This document shows positions 7,929-60,333 of a DNA stretch of 64,000 nt, piece after piece; the first letter of the stretch is position 1, and the number at the start of each line of letters is the position of its first letter. The DNA is from Minisyncoccota bacterium. Its GTDB lineage: Bacteria; Patescibacteriota; Minisyncoccia; Phycocordibacterales; SBAW01. The stretch is taken from the NCBI GenBank assembly GCA_035546615.1, contig DASZWM010000003.1, positions 64,001-128,000 on the forward strand, in the 5' to 3' direction. The notes under the pieces are model-generated. The model saw nothing but the letters and a program-made list of their open reading frames with translations. It was not told the DNA's origin and did not search any database. Both the position numbers and the translations under genes were made by a program.

Positions 7929-7979
7929 ATTTTTTAATTAGTCCTATTAATTGTCGAATAACATTTCTCTGCGAAAACG

Positions 7980-9215
7980 TTATTCGTACCGCAGCGCCTC
8001 GATTGGGTTAAGCGCTGCCGCGCGGCGCGCCGGGTAGTACCCGAACACGATGCCGATCAAGGCAGATACGCCGAACGCAAGAATGATGGATGTCGGCGAT
8101 ACCGCGGTCTTCACGATGCCGGTCAGATTGACGGCGAAGGATATGCCCCACCCCAGGGCGATGCCGATGACGCCGCCGATAAGCGTCAGCGCGATGGCCT
8201 CGATGAGAAACTGCTTGGTGATGTCGCTCTTTCTCGCGCCTATCGCCTTGCGCAGGCCTATCTCGCGCGTGCGCTCGGTTACCGTCGTGAGCATCATGTT
8301 CATGATGCCGATGCCGCCGACCAGCAAACTGATGCCGCCTATCGCGGCAAGAAGGTACGTCAGGGTGGCCGTGACGCTCGACGCCGACGCGAGGATGTCC
8401 GCCTGGTTAAGCACGCTGAAATCCGCAGCGGTCGCGTCGGAGATATGGTGCCGGTCCAGAAGCAGCGCGGTAATGTCGGCCGAGGCCTGCGTCATGACAT
8501 CGGCGCTTGCGGCCTGCACGTCGATGGATGTCAGGTACTGGTCGCCGGAGAAGTAGCGCTGCGCGCTTTTGACCGGGATGTAGACGATATCGTCGGCGTT
8601 GGTGAATCCGCTGCCGCCCTTGGCCGCGGTAACGCCGATAACCTTGAACTCCATGCCCTTGATGCGGATTATCTTTCCTATCGCGTCCGCCGCCGCCGTG
8701 TCCTCCCCGAACAAGTCGCTTACTACCGTCGGCCCCAGCACCGCCACTTTGGCGGCGGAATCGTTTTGCGTGTCGCTGATGAACGAGCCTTCAGCCACGG
8801 CAATGTTGCGGATAGCCGGATAGCTCGCCGTGGTGCCGTTGACGGTCGTATTGGTATTGGTGCCCTTGGCGGTTATCTGATAGCGGCCGGTTACTTCCTG
8901 CGCGACCGCCTCCACGCCCGAGACCTGCGCGAGTATTGCGTCGGCGTCGGCCGCGGTCAGCGACTTTGCTCCCCCGCGGCCGGCGGAAGCGGTAAAGCCA
9001 CCGGCCATGCGCTGTACCCCCGGCGTTATCTGCAAAAGATTGGAACCCAAGGCGCTGATGCTTGAAGAAATAGACGCCGAAGCGCCGCTGCCTATCGAGA
9101 CCATCGCGATGACGGACGAAATGCCGATAACGATGCCGAGTATAGTGAGCCCGGAGCGGACCTTGTTGGCCGAAAGGGCCGTATAGGTTTCGTGTAAGGT
9201 ATCTTTTAAAGTCAT
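7980..9215 (-). CDS. ABC transporter permease, MacB/FtsX family
   Basis: MacB periplasmic core domain plus C-terminal FtsX 4-TM domain. Start taken at MTLKDTLHETY (ATG 9213-9215). Confidence 0.8.
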   Translation of the reverse strand: MTLKDTLHETYTALSANKVRSGLTILGIVIGISSVIAMVSIGSGASASISSSISALGSNLLQITPGVQRMAGGFTASAGRGGAKSLTAADADAILAQVSGVEAVAQEVTGRYQITAKGTNTNTTVNGTTASYPAIRNIAVAEGSFISDTQNDSAAKVAVLGPTVVSDLFGEDTAAADAIGKIIRIKGMEFKVIGVTAAKGGSGFTNADDIVYIPVKSAQRYFSGDQYLTSIDVQAASADVMTQASADITALLLDRHHISDATAADFSVLNQADILASASSVTATLTYLLAAIGGISLLVGGIGIMNMMLTTVTERTREIGLRKAIGARKSDITKQFLIEAIALTLIGGVIGIALGWGISFAVNLTGIVKTAVSPTSIILAFGVSALIGIVFGYYPARRAAALNPIEALRYE

Positions 9216-24157: not shown

Positions 24158-25015
24158 CTAGGCCAGGAAGGGGTCAAGCGCCCCTTCAAGCACGCCTTCG
24201 GCATCGCGGACCTCCACATTGGTGCGGTGGTCCTTCACTAATTTGTACGGATGAAGCACGTAGGAGCGTATCTGATTGCCCCATTCGATCTTGCCGACTG
24301 CGGTTGAAAGTTCGTCTATGCGCTCTTTGCGCTCCTCTGCCATAAAATGGAGCAGTTTCGCCTCTACTATCGCAAGCGCCTTCTCCTTGTTCGCTCCCTG
24401 CGTGCGCTCGCCGTCAACGTGCGCGGAAATGCCGGTAGGCTTATGCACGATGCGCACCGCCGTTTCGCGCTTGTTGACGTTCTGGCCGCCCGGGCCGCCG
24501 GAGCGCGCCACCGTTATTTCAAGGTCGTCTTCGGGAATATCGATATCGGACACTTTTTCCAAGACCGGCAGGACCTCCACGAGCACGAAGGACGTGTGCC
24601 GTTTGGCGGAGGCATTGAACGGCGAGATGCGCACGAGCCGATGCACGCCGTACTCGTTTTTGAGCGTGCCGTACGCGCGCTTCCCCGCTATTTCTATCGA
24701 AAGGTTGCGGTAGCCGCCGCGGTCGTTCCGGTTCTCGTGCAGCAGCTTGTAGCCCCAGCCGCGGTTTTCTATGAACTTGCGGTACATCTCAAAGAGCATG
24801 TGCGCGAAATCCTCGGCATCGTCCCCGCCCGCGCCCGCGACGATGGTGAGTATGGCGTTGCCGTTCTCGTATTTGCTGCCCCCCTCAAGCTCTGCCTTGA
24901 GGTCCTGGAGCTCTTTTATGAGATTCCGGGCCTCGGCAGGGTTGCTCCAAAAGTCCGGAGCCTGCATCGCTCCTTCTATCTCCCTGATGCGCTTTTCTAC
25001 CTCTTCTTTGGTCAT
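24158..25015 (-). CDS. prfB: peptide chain release factor 2 (short N-terminal domain)
   Basis: Motifs GGQ and SPF ([17 protein letters not shown]2-specific). Only about 50 aa precede the conserved core. No frameshift site. The start codon directly abuts the tRNA-Thr 3' CCA. Confidence 0.8.
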
Positions 25016-25091
25016 TGGAGCCGGAGGCCAGGATTGAACTGGCGACCCCGTCTTTACGAAAGACGTGCTCTACCAACTGAGCTACTCCGGC
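25016..25091 (-). tRNA. tRNA-Thr (anticodon CGU), CCA encoded
   Basis: Manual fold: GCCGGAG acceptor, D-arm GCUC-AGUUGGUA-GAGC, anticodon arm CGUCU-UUCGUAA-AGACG, T-loop UUCAAUC, 3' UCCA. Confidence 0.85.
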
Positions 25092-26795: not shown

Positions 26796-26869
26796 TGTCG
26801 GCGGAAGGACTTGCACCTTCGACCTTGGGTTTATGAGTCCCATGCTCTAACTACCTGAGCTACGCCGAC
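26796..26869 (-). tRNA. tRNA-Met, elongator (anticodon CAU)
   Basis: G1-C72 acceptor (GUCGGCG/CGCCGAC), anticodon loop CUCAUAA, T-arm GAAGG-UGCAAGU-CCUUC with an unusual G at position 55. Confidence 0.7.
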
Positions 26870-27615: not shown

Positions 27616-27687
27616 CGCGGGGTGGAGCAGTAGTAGCTCGCAAGGCTCATAACCTTGAGGTCGCAGGTGCAAGTCCTGCCCCCGCAA
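27616..27687 (+). tRNA. initiator tRNA-fMet (anticodon CAU)
   Basis: Near-identical to E. coli tRNA-fMet at the ends: CGCGGGG...CCCCGCAA with the C1-A72 mismatch. Anticodon loop CUCAUAA. T-arm GCAGG-UGCAAGU-CCUGC. Confidence 0.85.
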
Positions 27688-51328: not shown

Positions 51329-53497
51329 ATGCAGCCGTCCGACCCCCTCTCCAAGCACCTTCGGCTCAGCGAAGAGCACTCAAACGCCCTGTCGCGCCTC
51401 GGCATCAAGACCGTACGCGATCTCCTCTTTTATTTCCCCTTCCGCTACGACCAAGGAGGCGGCGAGGCAAGCGTAGCAGGCCTAACGGTGGGCGCGGAAG
51501 TATCCATCATCGGCACGCTCGAAAAGCTTGAGGCGAAGAAATCATGGAAGAGCCGCATCCCCGTCGCCGAAGGATATCTGCGCGACGCGACCGGCCGCAT
51601 CAAACTGCGTTTTTTCAATCAGCCGTACATCGCAAAAATGTATACGGACGGCCTGCTAGTTAAGGCTACCGGCAAAGTGAGCGGCTCGGCCGGAAAGGAA
51701 TATCTCGCAAACCCGCAGCTTGAACGCGTCTCCCCTACCGAAGCGGGGCTGTTCAAGAAAACCGCGGACATTCTGGCGGAGGCCGACGCGGAAGTGCCGA
51801 CCCTTTTCGCGATGTATCCGGAAACGCGCGGCATTACCTCGCTCTGGTTCCGGCACGCGATAGAAAAAGTACTGAACGGCGGGGCGCTGGACGCGATGGA
51901 AGACCCGATTCCCGCCGATATGCTTAAGCGCTATAACTTGCCCACACTTAGGAGCGCCCTGGTCTGGATACACGCGCCGCAAACGCTGAAGGACGCCGAG
52001 GCCGCGCGCAAGCGATTCGCGTTTCAGGAAGTATTTTTGATACAGCTCGAGCGCGGGCGCGAACGCGCGCTCCAGGCGCGCGAAAAAAGCTTTTCCATTG
52101 ATGCGCCGGAAGAAGCTGTGGAGGAGTTCATGGGCGAATTCCCTTTCGAGGCGACCGATGCGCAGAAGCGCGCTATCGACGCGATACTAAACGACATGCG
52201 CAGCGGCCGCCCCATGTCGCGACTGCTGGAAGGCGACGTCGGAAGCGGCAAGACAGCGGTGGCGGCAACAGCCGCCTATGCCGCCGTGCGGACTCGGCCC
52301 CAAGGACAAAAGTACGGCACGCTCCAGGTGGCCTACATGGCGCCAACCGAGATCCTCGCCAAGCAGCATTTCGAATCCTTCATCAAGTATTTCGAGAAGT
52401 TCCCTATCAATATCGGGCTCATCACGGGCTCTGGCTGTTTCAAATTCCCTTCTAAAAGCCGGCGCGACGAGGCCACGAACATTTCGCGCGCGCAGCTTCT
52501 GAAGTGGGTGGCTAACGGCGAGATACCGGTCTTGATCGGCACGCATGCGCTCATACAGAAATCGGTCGCGTTTAAGCACCTGGCGCTCGTCGTGATAGAC
52601 GAGCAGCACCGCTTCGGCACCAACCAGCGCCGCAAGCTCGCCAAAAAAGAAGAGCGGCTGCCCCATCTGCTGTCCATGACCGCAACCCCCATCCCCCGCA
52701 CGCTCGCGCTCACTATATATGGAGACCTCGATCTGACGCTCTTGGACCAGATGCCGCCGGGCCGCAAAACTATCATCACCGAAATCGTGAAGCCGGAGGA
52801 CCGTGGCGAGGCGTACCAGCTCATGCGCCGCGAACTCAAGGACGGCCGCCAGGCGTACGTCATCTGCCCGCGCATCGACGAGCCGGACCCGGACAAGGCG
52901 TTCGCGATACAGGCGAAGTCGGTGAAGGAAGAAGCGAAGCGCCTGAAGCTGAAAGTATTCCCGGAATATGCGATCGAGATACTGCACAGCAAGATGAAGC
53001 CCAAGGAGAAGGACGATATCATGGCGCGGTTCGCCGCGCACGAGATAGATATTCTTGTGGCAACATCGGTCGTGGAGGTGGGCGTGAACGTACCCAACGC
53101 GACGCTCATCATGATAGAGGGCGCGGAGCGCTTCGGCCTTTCCCAGCTCCACCAGCTGCGCGGACGCGTCGTACGGTCCAACCATCAGGCGTATTGCTTC
53201 GTGTGCCCGGAATCGCGCGGAGAAAAGACCCTGGCCCGTCTCAAGGCGCTTACGAAAGCCAAGAACGGCTTTGAATTGGCCGAGATGGACCTGATGCAGC
53301 GCGGGCCGGGAGAATTGTCAGGCCGCCAGCAATGGGGCATCTCCGACATCGGCATGGAGGCGCTCAAGAACCTGAAACTGGTCGAAGCCGCGCGCAACGA
53401 AGCGCTTGAGCTCATACAAAAGGACGAAATGCTGGCGAAGCACCCACTCTTAGACCAAGCCCTCGCCGATCGCCGGCCCACGATGCATTTTGAGTAG
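51329..53497 (+). CDS. recG: ATP-dependent DNA helicase RecG
   Basis: Wedge/OB N-terminal domain, Walker A GDVGSGKT, DEQH box (VIDEQHRFG) and helicase C domain. 722 aa. Confidence 0.9.
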   Translation: MQPSDPLSKHLRLSEEHSNALSRLGIKTVRDLLFYFPFRYDQGGGEASVAGLTVGAEVSIIGTLEKLEAKKSWKSRIPVAEGYLRDATGRIKLRFFNQPYIAKMYTDGLLVKATGKVSGSAGKEYLANPQLERVSPTEAGLFKKTADILAEADAEVPTLFAMYPETRGITSLWFRHAIEKVLNGGALDAMEDPIPADMLKRYNLPTLRSALVWIHAPQTLKDAEAARKRFAFQEVFLIQLERGRERALQAREKSFSIDAPEEAVEEFMGEFPFEATDAQKRAIDAILNDMRSGRPMSRLLEGDVGSGKTAVAATAAYAAVRTRPQGQKYGTLQVAYMAPTEILAKQHFESFIKYFEKFPINIGLITGSGCFKFPSKSRRDEATNISRAQLLKWVANGEIPVLIGTHALIQKSVAFKHLALVVIDEQHRFGTNQRRKLAKKEERLPHLLSMTATPIPRTLALTIYGDLDLTLLDQMPPGRKTIITEIVKPEDRGEAYQLMRRELKDGRQAYVICPRIDEPDPDKAFAIQAKSVKEEAKRLKLKVFPEYAIEILHSKMKPKEKDDIMARFAAHEIDILVATSVVEVGVNVPNATLIMIEGAERFGLSQLHQLRGRVVRSNHQAYCFVCPESRGEKTLARLKALTKAKNGFELAEMDLMQRGPGELSGRQQWGISDIGMEALKNLKLVEAARNEALELIQKDEMLAKHPLLDQALADRRPTMHFE

Positions 53498-53522: not shown

Positions 53523-53595
53523 GGGCGTGTAGCTCAGTTGGTAGAGCAGCCGACTTATACTCGGCCGGTCCCAGGTTCGATCCCTGGCGCGCCCA
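53523..53595 (+). tRNA. tRNA-Ile (anticodon UAU)
   Basis: Manual fold: GGGCGUG acceptor, D-arm GCUC-AGUUGGUA-GAGC, anticodon arm GCCGA-CUUAUAC-UCGGC, T-arm CCAGG-UUCGAUC-CCUGG, discriminator A. Confidence 0.75.
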
Positions 53596-53669
53596 CAAAA
53601 TACAGAAACACCTGCCCTGCGGCAGGTTTTGTGCTACTGTTGTGCGGGTTCATTAACAGGGAGGGCGCG

Positions 53670-54608
53670 ATGCCCCACAAACTGCATGGCCAATCGATCA
53701 TCTGGTCGCAAGACTTTGACGTGCCGCTGCTCGAAGAGCTGTTCGAGCTGGCGGACAAGCTCAAGAAAGAGCCTGAGAACAAGGCTCTGGCAGGCCAGCT
53801 GATAATCAGTCTCTTTTTCGAAAAGAGCACGAGAACTCGAATGTCTTTCGAGGCAGCGGTTCATGGACTGGGCGGTGATCGCATGACCACTGAAGACGCG
53901 ATGCAATTCTCCTCATTCGGCAAGGGTGAGCCGTTCGAGGAGGGCATACAGGTCATCTCCGCATACGGGCAGGCGATTATTCTCCGACATCCGGAGGACG
54001 ATGCCGCCATGCGGGCGCGCGACTATCTGCAAAGCTTCAACATCTGGGTGCCCATCATCAACGCCGGATGCGGCCAGGCGCAGCATCCGACACAGTCGCT
54101 GCTTGATCTCTATACTATCCGCGAGCTCCGCGGCCGTATCGAGAACCTTACAATCGTCATTGTGGGCGACCTCAAGCACAGCCGTGTGGTTCGCTCGCTC
54201 ATCTACCTGCTCGGCAAATTCCCCGGCATCCGTATCATCCTGGTTGCGCCGTGGGAGCTCGCCATCGGCCACAACATGCTCGCCTACATGCGGCGGCATG
54301 GAGTGGAATTCCTGCAGACGCCGAAGCTCGCCGATGTCATCGGGGAGGCCGACGTAGTCTATTTCACCCGCGTCCAGAAGGAGCGGTTCGAAGATCCGAA
54401 GGAGTACGAGCGCCTCAAGAACTCGTATCGCCTTACGGTCGGGCTTGCGGAGAAGATGCGGCCCGGCGCCGCCATCATGCATCCGCTTCCCCGCGTCGAC
54501 GAGATAGACGAGGCGGTATCGCGGATGCCGCAGGCCCATTGGATAACGCAATCCAACAACGGCGTGCCGATTCGCAAGGCACTGCTCCAGATGGTGCTCG
54601 GCGAGTGA
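53670..54608 (+). CDS. pyrB: aspartate carbamoyltransferase catalytic subunit
   Basis: Motifs STRTR, HPTQ (GQAQHPTQSLLDL) and HPLP. RBS GGGAGGG 7 nt before ATG 53670. The upstream part of the long ORF overlaps the tRNA and is rejected. Confidence 0.85.
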   Translation: MPHKLHGQSIIWSQDFDVPLLEELFELADKLKKEPENKALAGQLIISLFFEKSTRTRMSFEAAVHGLGGDRMTTEDAMQFSSFGKGEPFEEGIQVISAYGQAIILRHPEDDAAMRARDYLQSFNIWVPIINAGCGQAQHPTQSLLDLYTIRELRGRIENLTIVIVGDLKHSRVVRSLIYLLGKFPGIRIILVAPWELAIGHNMLAYMRRHGVEFLQTPKLADVIGEADVVYFTRVQKERFEDPKEYERLKNSYRLTVGLAEKMRPGAAIMHPLPRVDEIDEAVSRMPQAHWITQSNNGVPIRKALLQMVLGE

Positions 54609-54726
54609 CGACAAACTTCGCAGCAGGGCCGCGGTCTTCGGACCGCGGCCTTTCTTTTTCATAGCAGCGGCTGTATTGTGCGATGGGTTCTTTCCCATAC
54701 ATCGCAAACCAACGGAGGATACGGCG

Positions 54727-55893
54727 ATGGAAGTACAAGGAGACGCCGACACCGCACTAAAGGTCGTCATGCGCAAGCCTGCCGATATGCACCAACATGT
54801 CCGTACGGGCGCAACGCTCGAGCTGGTGGCGCCGATGGTGCGAGCTCGATTCGCGACATTCGTAGCGATGCCAAATACCCAGCCTGACTACATCACCACC
54901 AGCGACGCTTTGGTGGCGTATCACAGCGAGATCGTCGGCGCCATGTTTCCCGAGTGGAGCGCGCGAGGCTACAAGCCCGGCAAGGATCCCGACCGGGTGC
55001 CGGATTGCCTCATGACGCTCTACTTCACCGACGCTCTCGAGCCCAAAGAGATCGAGCATTCCCTGCCCTATCCGTTCGCGGGAGTGAAATACTACCCGCG
55101 GGGCCTCACGACCAACAGCGACAAAGGAATCGCGGACCCAGCATCGCTCTGGACCCCCGGTACGAAAGCGTACGAAGTCGTGCGCATGCTCGCGGACAGC
55201 GATAAGGTGTTGCTCATGCACGGAGCGGATGGCCTCGATAAAGACCGTCACGAGCTCGACCCGTTCGAGCAGGAGCCGCATTTCTTCCGCGAGACGCTGC
55301 CTCGTACCATGGATGCACATCCGGACGCTAAGATCTCGGTCGAGCATCTCTCGACCGCGGTCGGCGCGGAGTTCATCCGCAACCACGGGAGCGAGCGGCT
55401 CGGCTGCTCGCTCACGCCGCACCACCTGCTTCTGGACCGGCGCGACGTGCTGCGGGGCGGCTTCAATCCGCACCGCTACTGGCTGCCGCCCATCCAATCG
55501 AGCGAGCATAAGGAGGAGCTCCGCCGGCTGGCGGCGGAAGACCATCCGTTCGTGTGGCTTGGCAGCGACTCGGCTCCGCATACGGTCGATAAGAAGCAGG
55601 CGGCATGTTGCGCGGGCGGCGTGCTCACCGCGCACGCGGGGATTGAGCTGTATGTCGAGGCGTTCGAGGATATGGGCGCGCTCGACGATCGGTTCGAACG
55701 GTTCGCGTCTGTTAACGGCCCGCGGTTCTACGGCTACGAGCCGAGCGGCGAGAAGATAACCCTCATTCGGGAAGAATGGAAGTTCAATAATTTCTTCTGT
55801 CTCTCGACCGACGTCAGCCAGCGGCTGAACCCGGAGCAGAACATCCGTCCGTTCCGCCTCGGCGAACCAATCCGCTGGAAGCTGGCCGTGTAG
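54727..55893 (+). CDS. pyrC: dihydroorotase (amidohydrolase superfamily)
   Basis: Metal-binding HxH (DMHQHV) and GSDSAPH motif. RBS GGAGG 8 nt before ATG 54727. Immediately downstream of pyrB. Confidence 0.75.
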   Translation: MEVQGDADTALKVVMRKPADMHQHVRTGATLELVAPMVRARFATFVAMPNTQPDYITTSDALVAYHSEIVGAMFPEWSARGYKPGKDPDRVPDCLMTLYFTDALEPKEIEHSLPYPFAGVKYYPRGLTTNSDKGIADPASLWTPGTKAYEVVRMLADSDKVLLMHGADGLDKDRHELDPFEQEPHFFRETLPRTMDAHPDAKISVEHLSTAVGAEFIRNHGSERLGCSLTPHHLLLDRRDVLRGGFNPHRYWLPPIQSSEHKEELRRLAAEDHPFVWLGSDSAPHTVDKKQAACCAGGVLTAHAGIELYVEAFEDMGALDDRFERFASVNGPRFYGYEPSGEKITLIREEWKFNNFFCLSTDVSQRLNPEQNIRPFRLGEPIRWKLAV

Positions 55894-59947: not shown

Positions 59948-60321
59948 GGGAGTGACAGGCTTAGACAATATAAATAATAGTTCGCACGCAAGGGAGAAGC
60001 GGGGACCTTCTTTAAAAAGCCCCAAACCATAACTGCAAAATCAGTTACATCGCCGTATTTCACGGTGAATGACCTCGCTTTCGCTACCGCAAGGAGCTAA
60101 GCGAGCATTGGCTCTGCAACGCTCGTGAGCGGAGTACCAATGTTATAACACCGAGATCGATCGGCTAGCCTGCTTGCCTAGCCCTTCTAAACTAAAGCTG
60201 CGATCCGGTCTTATTTCGTCTGCTTCTTACAACCGGGTCTAAGAAACAAAAGCAGCCTATCTCTTGTAGACCTGCGCTCTATCTTATGTTGCACGGCGGT
60301 TCAACTCCGCCCACTTCCACC
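59948..60321 (+). ncRNA. ssrA: tmRNA (SsrA), standard one-piece
   Basis: Immediately downstream of smpB. 5' GGGAGUG pairs with 3' CACUUCC, including the G3-U70 Ala identity pair. T-arm GGCGG-UUCAACU-CCGCC with a T-loop identical to E. coli tmRNA. Discriminator A then CC. PK1-like GCGGGGACC..AAAAAGCCCC. Candidate tag frame GCA(60035)..UAA(60098-60100). Confidence 0.7.
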
Positions 60322-60333
60322 GGTAAAAACATT

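Follow-up and report, generated by a model that had tools for sequence, protein, structure and literature searches.

The window analysed here, a 64-kb stretch of DNA with a GC content of 59%, carries a tRNA gene whose anticodon, UAU, is encoded directly and matches the isoleucine codon AUA. We read this tRNA-Ile(UAU), with a probability of about 0.8, as a functional and dedicated AUA decoder that descends from tRNA-Ile2(CAU) and replaced the lysidine system in its lineage. To our knowledge, AUA and AUG are the sole split purine-ending pair in the genetic code. The essential enzyme TilS is the solution to the AUA/AUG problem in nearly all bacteria. In a 2018 survey, 98% of bacteria had TilS, which was described as evolutionarily stable (PMC6063277); the bacterial cases of tRNA-Ile(UAU) known in 2013 were nine tilS-less species from three clades and a handful that combine the two systems (PMC3575796). 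The kind of system is known; what is new is an apparently very large clade of members and the high usage of AUA in a high-GC genome. A literature search returned no paper that ties tilS, lysidine, UAU or AUA to CPR bacteria or Patescibacteria.

The tRNA gene and its neighbourhood

The gene and the features around it are as follows.

51329-53497, + strand: recG, 722 aa, with the Pfam domains RecG_wedge, DEAD, Helicase_C and RecG_dom3_C
53523-53595, + strand: tRNA-Ile(UAU) gene, positions 1-73 with A73 at 53595 (ARAGORN, RF00005, cloverleaf minimum free energy fold, covariation)
53554-53560, + strand: anticodon loop C32-U33-U34-A35-U36-A37-C38, reading cttatac
53556-53558, + strand: anticodon TAT, read directly from the sequence
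53610-53632, + strand: terminator-like hairpin (53610-53627) followed by TTTGTG, a pattern match only, from a consensus scan
53670-54608, + strand: pyrB (Pfam OTCace_N/OTCace)
54676-55893, + strand: pyrC, E. coli-type dihydroorotase (TIGR00856, E = 1e-71)

ARAGORN called 53523-53596 (+) as tRNA-Ile with TAT at position 34, one of the seven tRNA genes that it detected in the 64 kb. RF00005, the Rfam model for tRNA, matched 53523-53595 over its full length with 70.6 bits against a gathering score of 29, the top score of this model within the window, and aligned CUUAUAC to the anticodon loop. The cloverleaf was the minimum free energy fold (-32 kcal/mol). The sequence-only reading of this DNA had proposed a tRNA-Ile with anticodon UAU at 53523-53595, and the two callers, the fold and the direct read of the letters bear out its coordinates, fold and anticodon. 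Both ARAGORN and RF00005 place the 73 nt without interruption, so the gene is free of an intron. Its 3' end lacks an encoded CCA, the next bases being CAA, and the copies in relatives are mostly without CCA as well. The sole window tRNA with an encoded 3' CCA is tRNA-Thr (25016-25091); since CCA is missing from the other six of the seven genes, a CCA-adding enzyme is required.

The gap between the end of recG, a conserved synteny anchor, and the tRNA gene is 26 nt. The hairpin, with a 7-bp stem (ACCTGCC/GGCAGGT) and a 4-nt loop, lies 15 nt 3' of the tRNA and may act as a terminator. The pyrB-pyrC pair begins 75 nt downstream of the tRNA and is not conserved alongside it: a PyrB orthologue was found in just six of 80 related loci, which indicates that the de novo pyrimidine block is patchy across the lineage. 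A few kb beyond pyrB-pyrC lie ftsH, smpB and the tmRNA gene, and the remaining genes are ordinary housekeeping and type IV pilus genes. Neither TilS nor IleRS is among the annotated genes of the 64-kb window.

Conservation across relatives

Relatives were collected by a RecG protein scan over one genome per bacterial species, which yielded 80 loci from metagenome-assembled genomes (MAGs) of Candidatus Paceibacterota, Adlerbacteria, Nomurabacteria, Kaiserbacteria, Zambryskibacteria and other Patescibacteria. The RecG identity to Paceibacterota/Adlerbacteria MAGs reached 82%. As all RecG matches are to Patescibacteria MAGs, the protein similarity identifies the source of the window as an ultra-small CPR bacterium of the Paceibacterota (Adlerbacteria-like) group.

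A tRNA-Ile(TAT) gene was present in 67 of the 80 species-level loci, in every case downstream of recG within 5 kb and on either strand; the distance from recG was at most 1 kb in 47 loci and at most 150 nt in 28. Among the 13 loci in which the gene was not found, the downstream sequence is shorter than 1 kb in nine and spans the full 10-kb flank in only two. The anticodon was TAT in 68 of 68 recovered copies and C38 was kept in 67 of these, the exception being U38 in locus L042. In an alignment of 39 diverse orthologous copies, one per species, C32-U33-U34-A35-U36-A37 and A73 were invariant. Paired bases filled 99.8% of the stem cells, and both partners had changed in 17 of the 21 pairs. In 500 shuffles, the percentage paired, the counts of doubly changed pairs and cells and the covariation score all stayed below the observed values, and shifted registers were just 28-47% paired. 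These alignments show tRNA-Ile(UAU) to be functional and subject to strong purifying selection throughout the lineage. The sequence-only reading had called tRNA-Ile(UAU) uncommon in bacteria; this holds for the described bacteria (PMC3575796, PMC6063277) but not for its own Paceibacterota lineage, in which the gene is the norm rather than an oddity.

Meaning and usage of AUA

The meaning of AUA was read from the RecG, FtsH, SmpB and PyrB orthologues of the loci, aligned codon by codon with the window as reference. The columns at each window codon had the following composition.

ATA columns: ATC/ATT 51.2%, ATA 22.0%, Val 15.0%, Leu 8.5%, Met 1.1%
ATC columns: ATC/ATT 54.7%, ATA 17.1%, Val 12.9%, Leu 7.6%, Met 1.9%
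ATT columns: ATC/ATT 55.1%, ATA 17.2%, Val 11.1%, Leu 8.2%, Met outside the nine commonest classes
ATG columns: ATC/ATT 8.2%, ATA 3.5%, Val 6.8%, Leu 7.3%, Met 56.8%

The ATA columns resemble the ATC and ATT columns and are unlike the ATG columns. On this orthologue profile, AUA is read as isoleucine in the organism of the window, as the sequence-only reading had it.

Codon counts over the whole window (63 ORFs, 17,239 codons) gave 357 occurrences of ATA, or 20.7 per 1000, a frequency near that of ATG, spread over 60 of the 63 ORFs. The codon-usage check that had been proposed alongside that reading thus finds AUA to be a major codon. ATC is the commonest isoleucine codon, ATA makes up 35% and ATT 16%, and GC3 is 0.77. 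The 35% share of ATA compares with 12% predicted from A3 at four-fold sites, an excess of about threefold, while AGA, CTA, TTA and CCA each stay below 2 per 1000 in the same ORFs. Many relatives of the high-GC, Adlerbacteria-like kind have a similar ATA excess of about threefold, but in the clade as a whole AUA is used about as often as composition predicts.

Identity of the tRNA and of the CAU tRNAs

By the rules of Silva et al. (2006), G3 or A3 with C70 or T70 points to tRNA-Ile and rules out Met as well as fMet, and tRNA-Ile2 typically has C4-G69 (PMC1635315). The window tRNA-Ile(UAU) has G3-C70, C11-G24 and U12-A23. In the 39 aligned copies, the 3-70 pair is G-C in 34 and A-U in five, 4-69 is C-G in 35, and U12-A23 and A73 are invariant. 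By sequence, the acceptor stem of tRNA-Ile(UAU) carries the signature of tRNA-Ile2, not that of tRNA-Met. G3-C70, C11-G24 and U12-A23 rule out a tRNA-Met identity, either elongator (C3-G70) or initiator (C3-G70, A11-U24, G12-C23, C1xA72).

Two CAU tRNAs accompany it in the window, both classed by the PMC1635315 rules.

26796-26869, - strand: elongator tRNA-Met(CAU), with C3-G70, G4-C69, G5-C68 and A73; not tRNA-Ile2
27616-27687, + strand: initiator tRNA-fMet(CAU), with the C1xA72 mismatch, A11-U24, G12-C23 and A29G30G31/C39C40U41

A third CAU tRNA, or a tRNA-Ile2(CAU), is absent within the 64-kb window. The count of one elongator CAU tRNA plus the initiator made from the letters alone was accurate, the two being of Met and fMet type. 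Both have an unusual elbow: position 18 of the D-loop is A and position 55 of the T-loop (UGCAAGU) is G, against the near-universal G18/U55 pair; the elbow is canonical in all remaining window tRNAs, tRNA-Ile(UAU) included. The anticodon stem of the elongator tRNA-Met is also mismatched at its base (A31-A39).

For the origin of the UAU gene, locus L034 is informative, because it encodes tRNA-Ile(UAU) and tRNA-Ile(GAU) at most 5 kb apart. Its GAU copy has A38 and a different acceptor stem, so the UAU gene did not arise by a recent duplication of the GAU gene. When metagenomes were scanned for CAU tRNAs that have a CUNAUAC loop, 76 genes were parsed (contigs L084-L163), 46 of them Met-like (C3-G70) and 25 Ile2-like (G/A3-C/U70); of the ten genes that most resemble the UAU family, nine were Ile2-like. 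These acceptor-stem signatures and the weak similarity ranking are suggestive, and at most that, of a descent from tRNA-Ile2(CAU). C38 was considered as a hallmark of U34 decoders and rejected, since the loop CUCAUAC occurs in at least 71 of the metagenome CAU tRNAs; with C38 common to so many CAU tRNAs, no specific function is claimed for it.

Probable distribution of the lysidine system among Patescibacteria

Table S2 of Nakagawa et al. (2026) lists tRNA counts per amino acid for 95 complete Patescibacteria genomes (PMC13011429); in its ARAGORN counts, 'Met' stands for every CAU tRNA. Two main states prevail among these genomes: two Ile tRNAs with about two CAU tRNAs, or one Ile tRNA with three CAU tRNAs (PMC13011429).

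Ile of 2 or more with 'Met' of 2 or fewer: Dojkabacteria 7/7, Microgenomatia 12/12, Paceibacteria 13/20
The same state: ABY1 2/4, Gracilibacteria 2/5, and single genomes of WWE3, UBA1384 and Doudnabacteria
Ile of 1 with 'Met' of 3: nearly all 36 Saccharimonadia and JAEDAM01 6/7 (the seventh with four 'Met')
The same state: Kazan-3B-28, Gracilibacteria 3/5, Paceibacteria 5/20

The tRNAscan-SE counts, in which Ile2 and fMet are split from Ile and Met, agree in giving Ile = 2 in most genomes of the first state and Ile = 1 in the second (PMC13011429). The paper itself makes no mention of Ile anticodons, tilS or lysidine. The simplest reading of these per-amino-acid counts is that the first state would correspond to GAU plus UAU tRNAs with no tRNA-Ile2(CAU), and the second to a GAU tRNA plus the lysidine tRNA. 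Taken together with the TAT gene in 67 Paceibacterota species, the two states make it likely that the UAU tRNA replaced the lysidine system in this lineage, short of proof for the window's own genome. Somewhat less firmly, lysidine-independent U34 decoding is probably the standard in most CPR groups outside the Saccharimonadia, i.e. Paceibacteria, Microgenomatia, Dojkabacteria, WWE3 and others. Two Ile and three 'Met' tRNAs are listed for a few genomes, e.g. GCA_022530585.1 and two of ABY1 (PMC13011429), so both AUA systems may co-exist in some Patescibacteria.

Protein-level searches covered the 64-kb window plus the 80 related loci, which sample a short syntenic segment per genome. Within these segments, E. 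coli TilS and IleRS were used as phmmer queries over six-frame ORFs and gave one match, a MetRS in locus L059 and the single class I synthetase hit; ileS was absent from the window and the 80 loci, and a regular expression for the SGGxDS PP-loop hit no plausible TilS gene there.

Alternative explanations

The tRNA might instead be a redundant isoacceptor, an extra AUA reader in cells that keep tilS and the lysidine-modified tRNA-Ile2(CAU). The co-occurrence of a UAU tRNA and tilS is documented, e.g. in Lactobacillus casei, L. plantarum, Cyanothece and Ferrimonas (PMC3575796), and the few complete genomes with two Ile-anticodon and three CAU tRNAs would fit it. The window is moreover only 64 kb of a genome, so that tilS and a third CAU tRNA could sit elsewhere. 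Redundancy is nevertheless unlikely in our judgement. In most complete Paceibacteria, Microgenomatia and Dojkabacteria the second Ile-anticodon tRNA goes with only two CAU tRNAs, and the two in the window are of Met and initiator type. Tiny CPR genomes keep few redundant tRNAs; here an invariant loop has been retained across 67 species, and AUA is a major codon. Nor did the window and the 80 loci, which represent a small syntenic share of the genomes, show a TilS-like ORF or PP-loop motif. Equally concerned with the tRNA set is the possibility that this is a lone superwobble isoleucine tRNA, whose unmodified U34 reads AUU, AUC and AUA with no tRNA-Ile(GAU), in the way that such a U34 serves entire codon boxes in Mycoplasma and mitochondria (PMC1635315). 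The UAU and GAU genes side by side in L034, the two Ile-anticodon tRNAs in complete genomes of the class and the position of ATC as commonest isoleucine codon in the window, which fits a G34 tRNA, make this very improbable.

Reassignment of AUA, or charging of the tRNA with Met (as in many mitochondria) or with Lys, is similarly hard to credit. CPR bacteria are known to reassign codons, namely UGA and CGA/CGG in Absconditabacteria (PMC8629427), and blastn against E. coli ranks tRNA-Lys (81% identity), not tRNA-Ile2, as the nearest tRNA. The profile of the ATA columns, however, equals that of ATC and ATT, with Met at 1.1% and Lys outside the nine commonest classes, and A35 in place of U35 fits Ile together with G3-C70, C4-G69 and A73. 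A Lys identity was rejected on the codon profile, cross-phylum tRNA similarity being judged uninformative. A non-working tRNA, whether a pseudogene, a mis-called anticodon or a recent arrival on a phage or mobile element, would be an exceedingly improbable explanation. tRNA-Ile genes for rare codons are often phage-borne, and the pyrB-pyrC pair downstream is patchy among relatives; against this, two independent callers agree on fold and anticodon, and the place beside the core gene recG is kept in 67 species. The clade-wide covariation and the invariant loop speak against both a pseudogene and a recent acquisition. A phage origin was rejected, as the best phage matches by blastn were generic, at about 80% identity, and annotated as Trp or Met.

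Comparison with known systems and putative mechanism

The nearest precedent for a replacement of the lysidine system is tRNA-Ile2(UAU) of Mycoplasma mobile, which shares the bacterial UAU anticodon, AUA as isoleucine and a reduced genome (Taniguchi et al. 2013, PMC3575796). That tRNA stands in place of tRNA-Ile2(CAU) and TilS, and a C34-to-U change in tRNA-Ile2 was proposed as its origin (PMC3575796). M. mobile is AT-rich and isolated in the Mollicutes, whereas the window has 59% GC, AUA supplies 35% of its isoleucine codons and the gene recurs in 67 species. In M. mobile, the unmodified U34, Arg865 of IleRS and the ribosomal discrimination against AUG were shown experimentally.

Bifidobacterium genomes are likewise high in GC. 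Bifidobacterium and Neorickettsia also have a bacterial tRNA-Ile(TAT) gene and lack tilS, and in them the tRNA goes together with an IleRS of eukaryotic type that was gained by horizontal transfer (PMC3575796). The tRNA-Ile(TAT) genes of Lactobacillus casei and L. plantarum, Cyanothece and Ferrimonas are bacterial as well (PMC3575796), but they are redundant, sporadic isoacceptors beside the lysidine system, whereas the Paceibacterota counts point to replacement. The classical tRNA-Ile2(CAU), modified to lysidine-AU, resembles the UAU tRNA in its AUA-specific isoleucine decoding and its acceptor stem (G/A3-C/U70, C4-G69, A73), and the C38 loop is common to the UAU family and some metagenome Ile2-type CAU tRNAs. 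It differs in that its C34 needs lysidinylation; with an encoded U34, recognition by IleRS and codon switching take no TilS step. In eukaryotes, the intron of tRNA-Ile(UAU) is needed for pseudouridylation; their genes bear introns, whereas the window gene has none. The eukaryotic tRNA, with its pseudouridine-A-pseudouridine anticodon, is similarly a U34-type AUA decoder (PMC3575796).

By analogy with M. mobile, the following path can be proposed for tRNA-Ile(UAU). A C34-to-U change in a tRNA-Ile2(CAU) would have given rise to the gene, which would then have displaced tRNA-Ile2(CAU) and TilS in the lineage. U34 would pair with A3 of AUA. IleRS would tolerate U34 by means of a basic residue, such as Arg, where the E. 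coli enzyme has W905, or would be a eukaryote-type enzyme, and misreading of AUG would be limited by competition from tRNA-Met together with features of the ribosome, of the tRNA itself or of its modifications. The sequence-only reading had also taken the UAU anticodon to imply a specialised U34 modification. This does not follow: M. mobile, the sole characterised bacterial case, has a U34 without modification, so none is required. The further suggestion of that reading, a possible absence of tilS, has indirect support from the published tRNA counts (PMC13011429).

If a dedicated UAU tRNA did replace the lysidine system across most of the CPR, TilS would be dispensable at a large evolutionary scale, in contradiction to its standing as near-universal and evolutionarily stable in bacteria. 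Many of the metagenome tRNA-Ile(TAT) genes left unassigned since 2013, when 371 such tDNA sequences were reported (PMC3575796), would then be accounted for, and this radiation would be the largest natural group for asking what keeps a U34 tRNA from reading AUG and what lets IleRS accept U34. In the high-GC Adlerbacteria-like branch, AUA would have turned into a preferred isoleucine codon, about threefold over compositional expectation. In practical terms, TilS (TIGR02432) would serve poorly to gauge how complete such CPR genomes are, and codon-usage models in which AUA is rare would mislead for them.

Other observations

The tmRNA gene adjoining smpB (59948-60322, + strand) scored 93.9 bits with Rfam and received no ARAGORN call in the window; the syntenic tmRNAs of many relatives were called by ARAGORN, with tag peptides such as AKSVSSPYFSVNDLSLATARA. 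A release-factor gene at 24158-25015 (- strand) encodes only 285 aa, matches PCRF from profile position 87 and appears to lack the usual N-terminal domain; its start codon abuts the tRNA-Thr gene (25016-25091) on the same strand.

A tRNA-Ser(ACU) with the loop UUACUAA was observed in eight low-GC relatives (L020 at 7970-8057, L025, L053, L059, L060, L062, L072 and L076). Apart from Arg(ACG), bacteria very rarely have tRNAs with A34 (PMC4013482). In six of the eight, a tRNA-Ser(GCU) lies within about 500 nt in the same stretch, and compensatory changes are present in the stems of tRNA-Ser(ACU).
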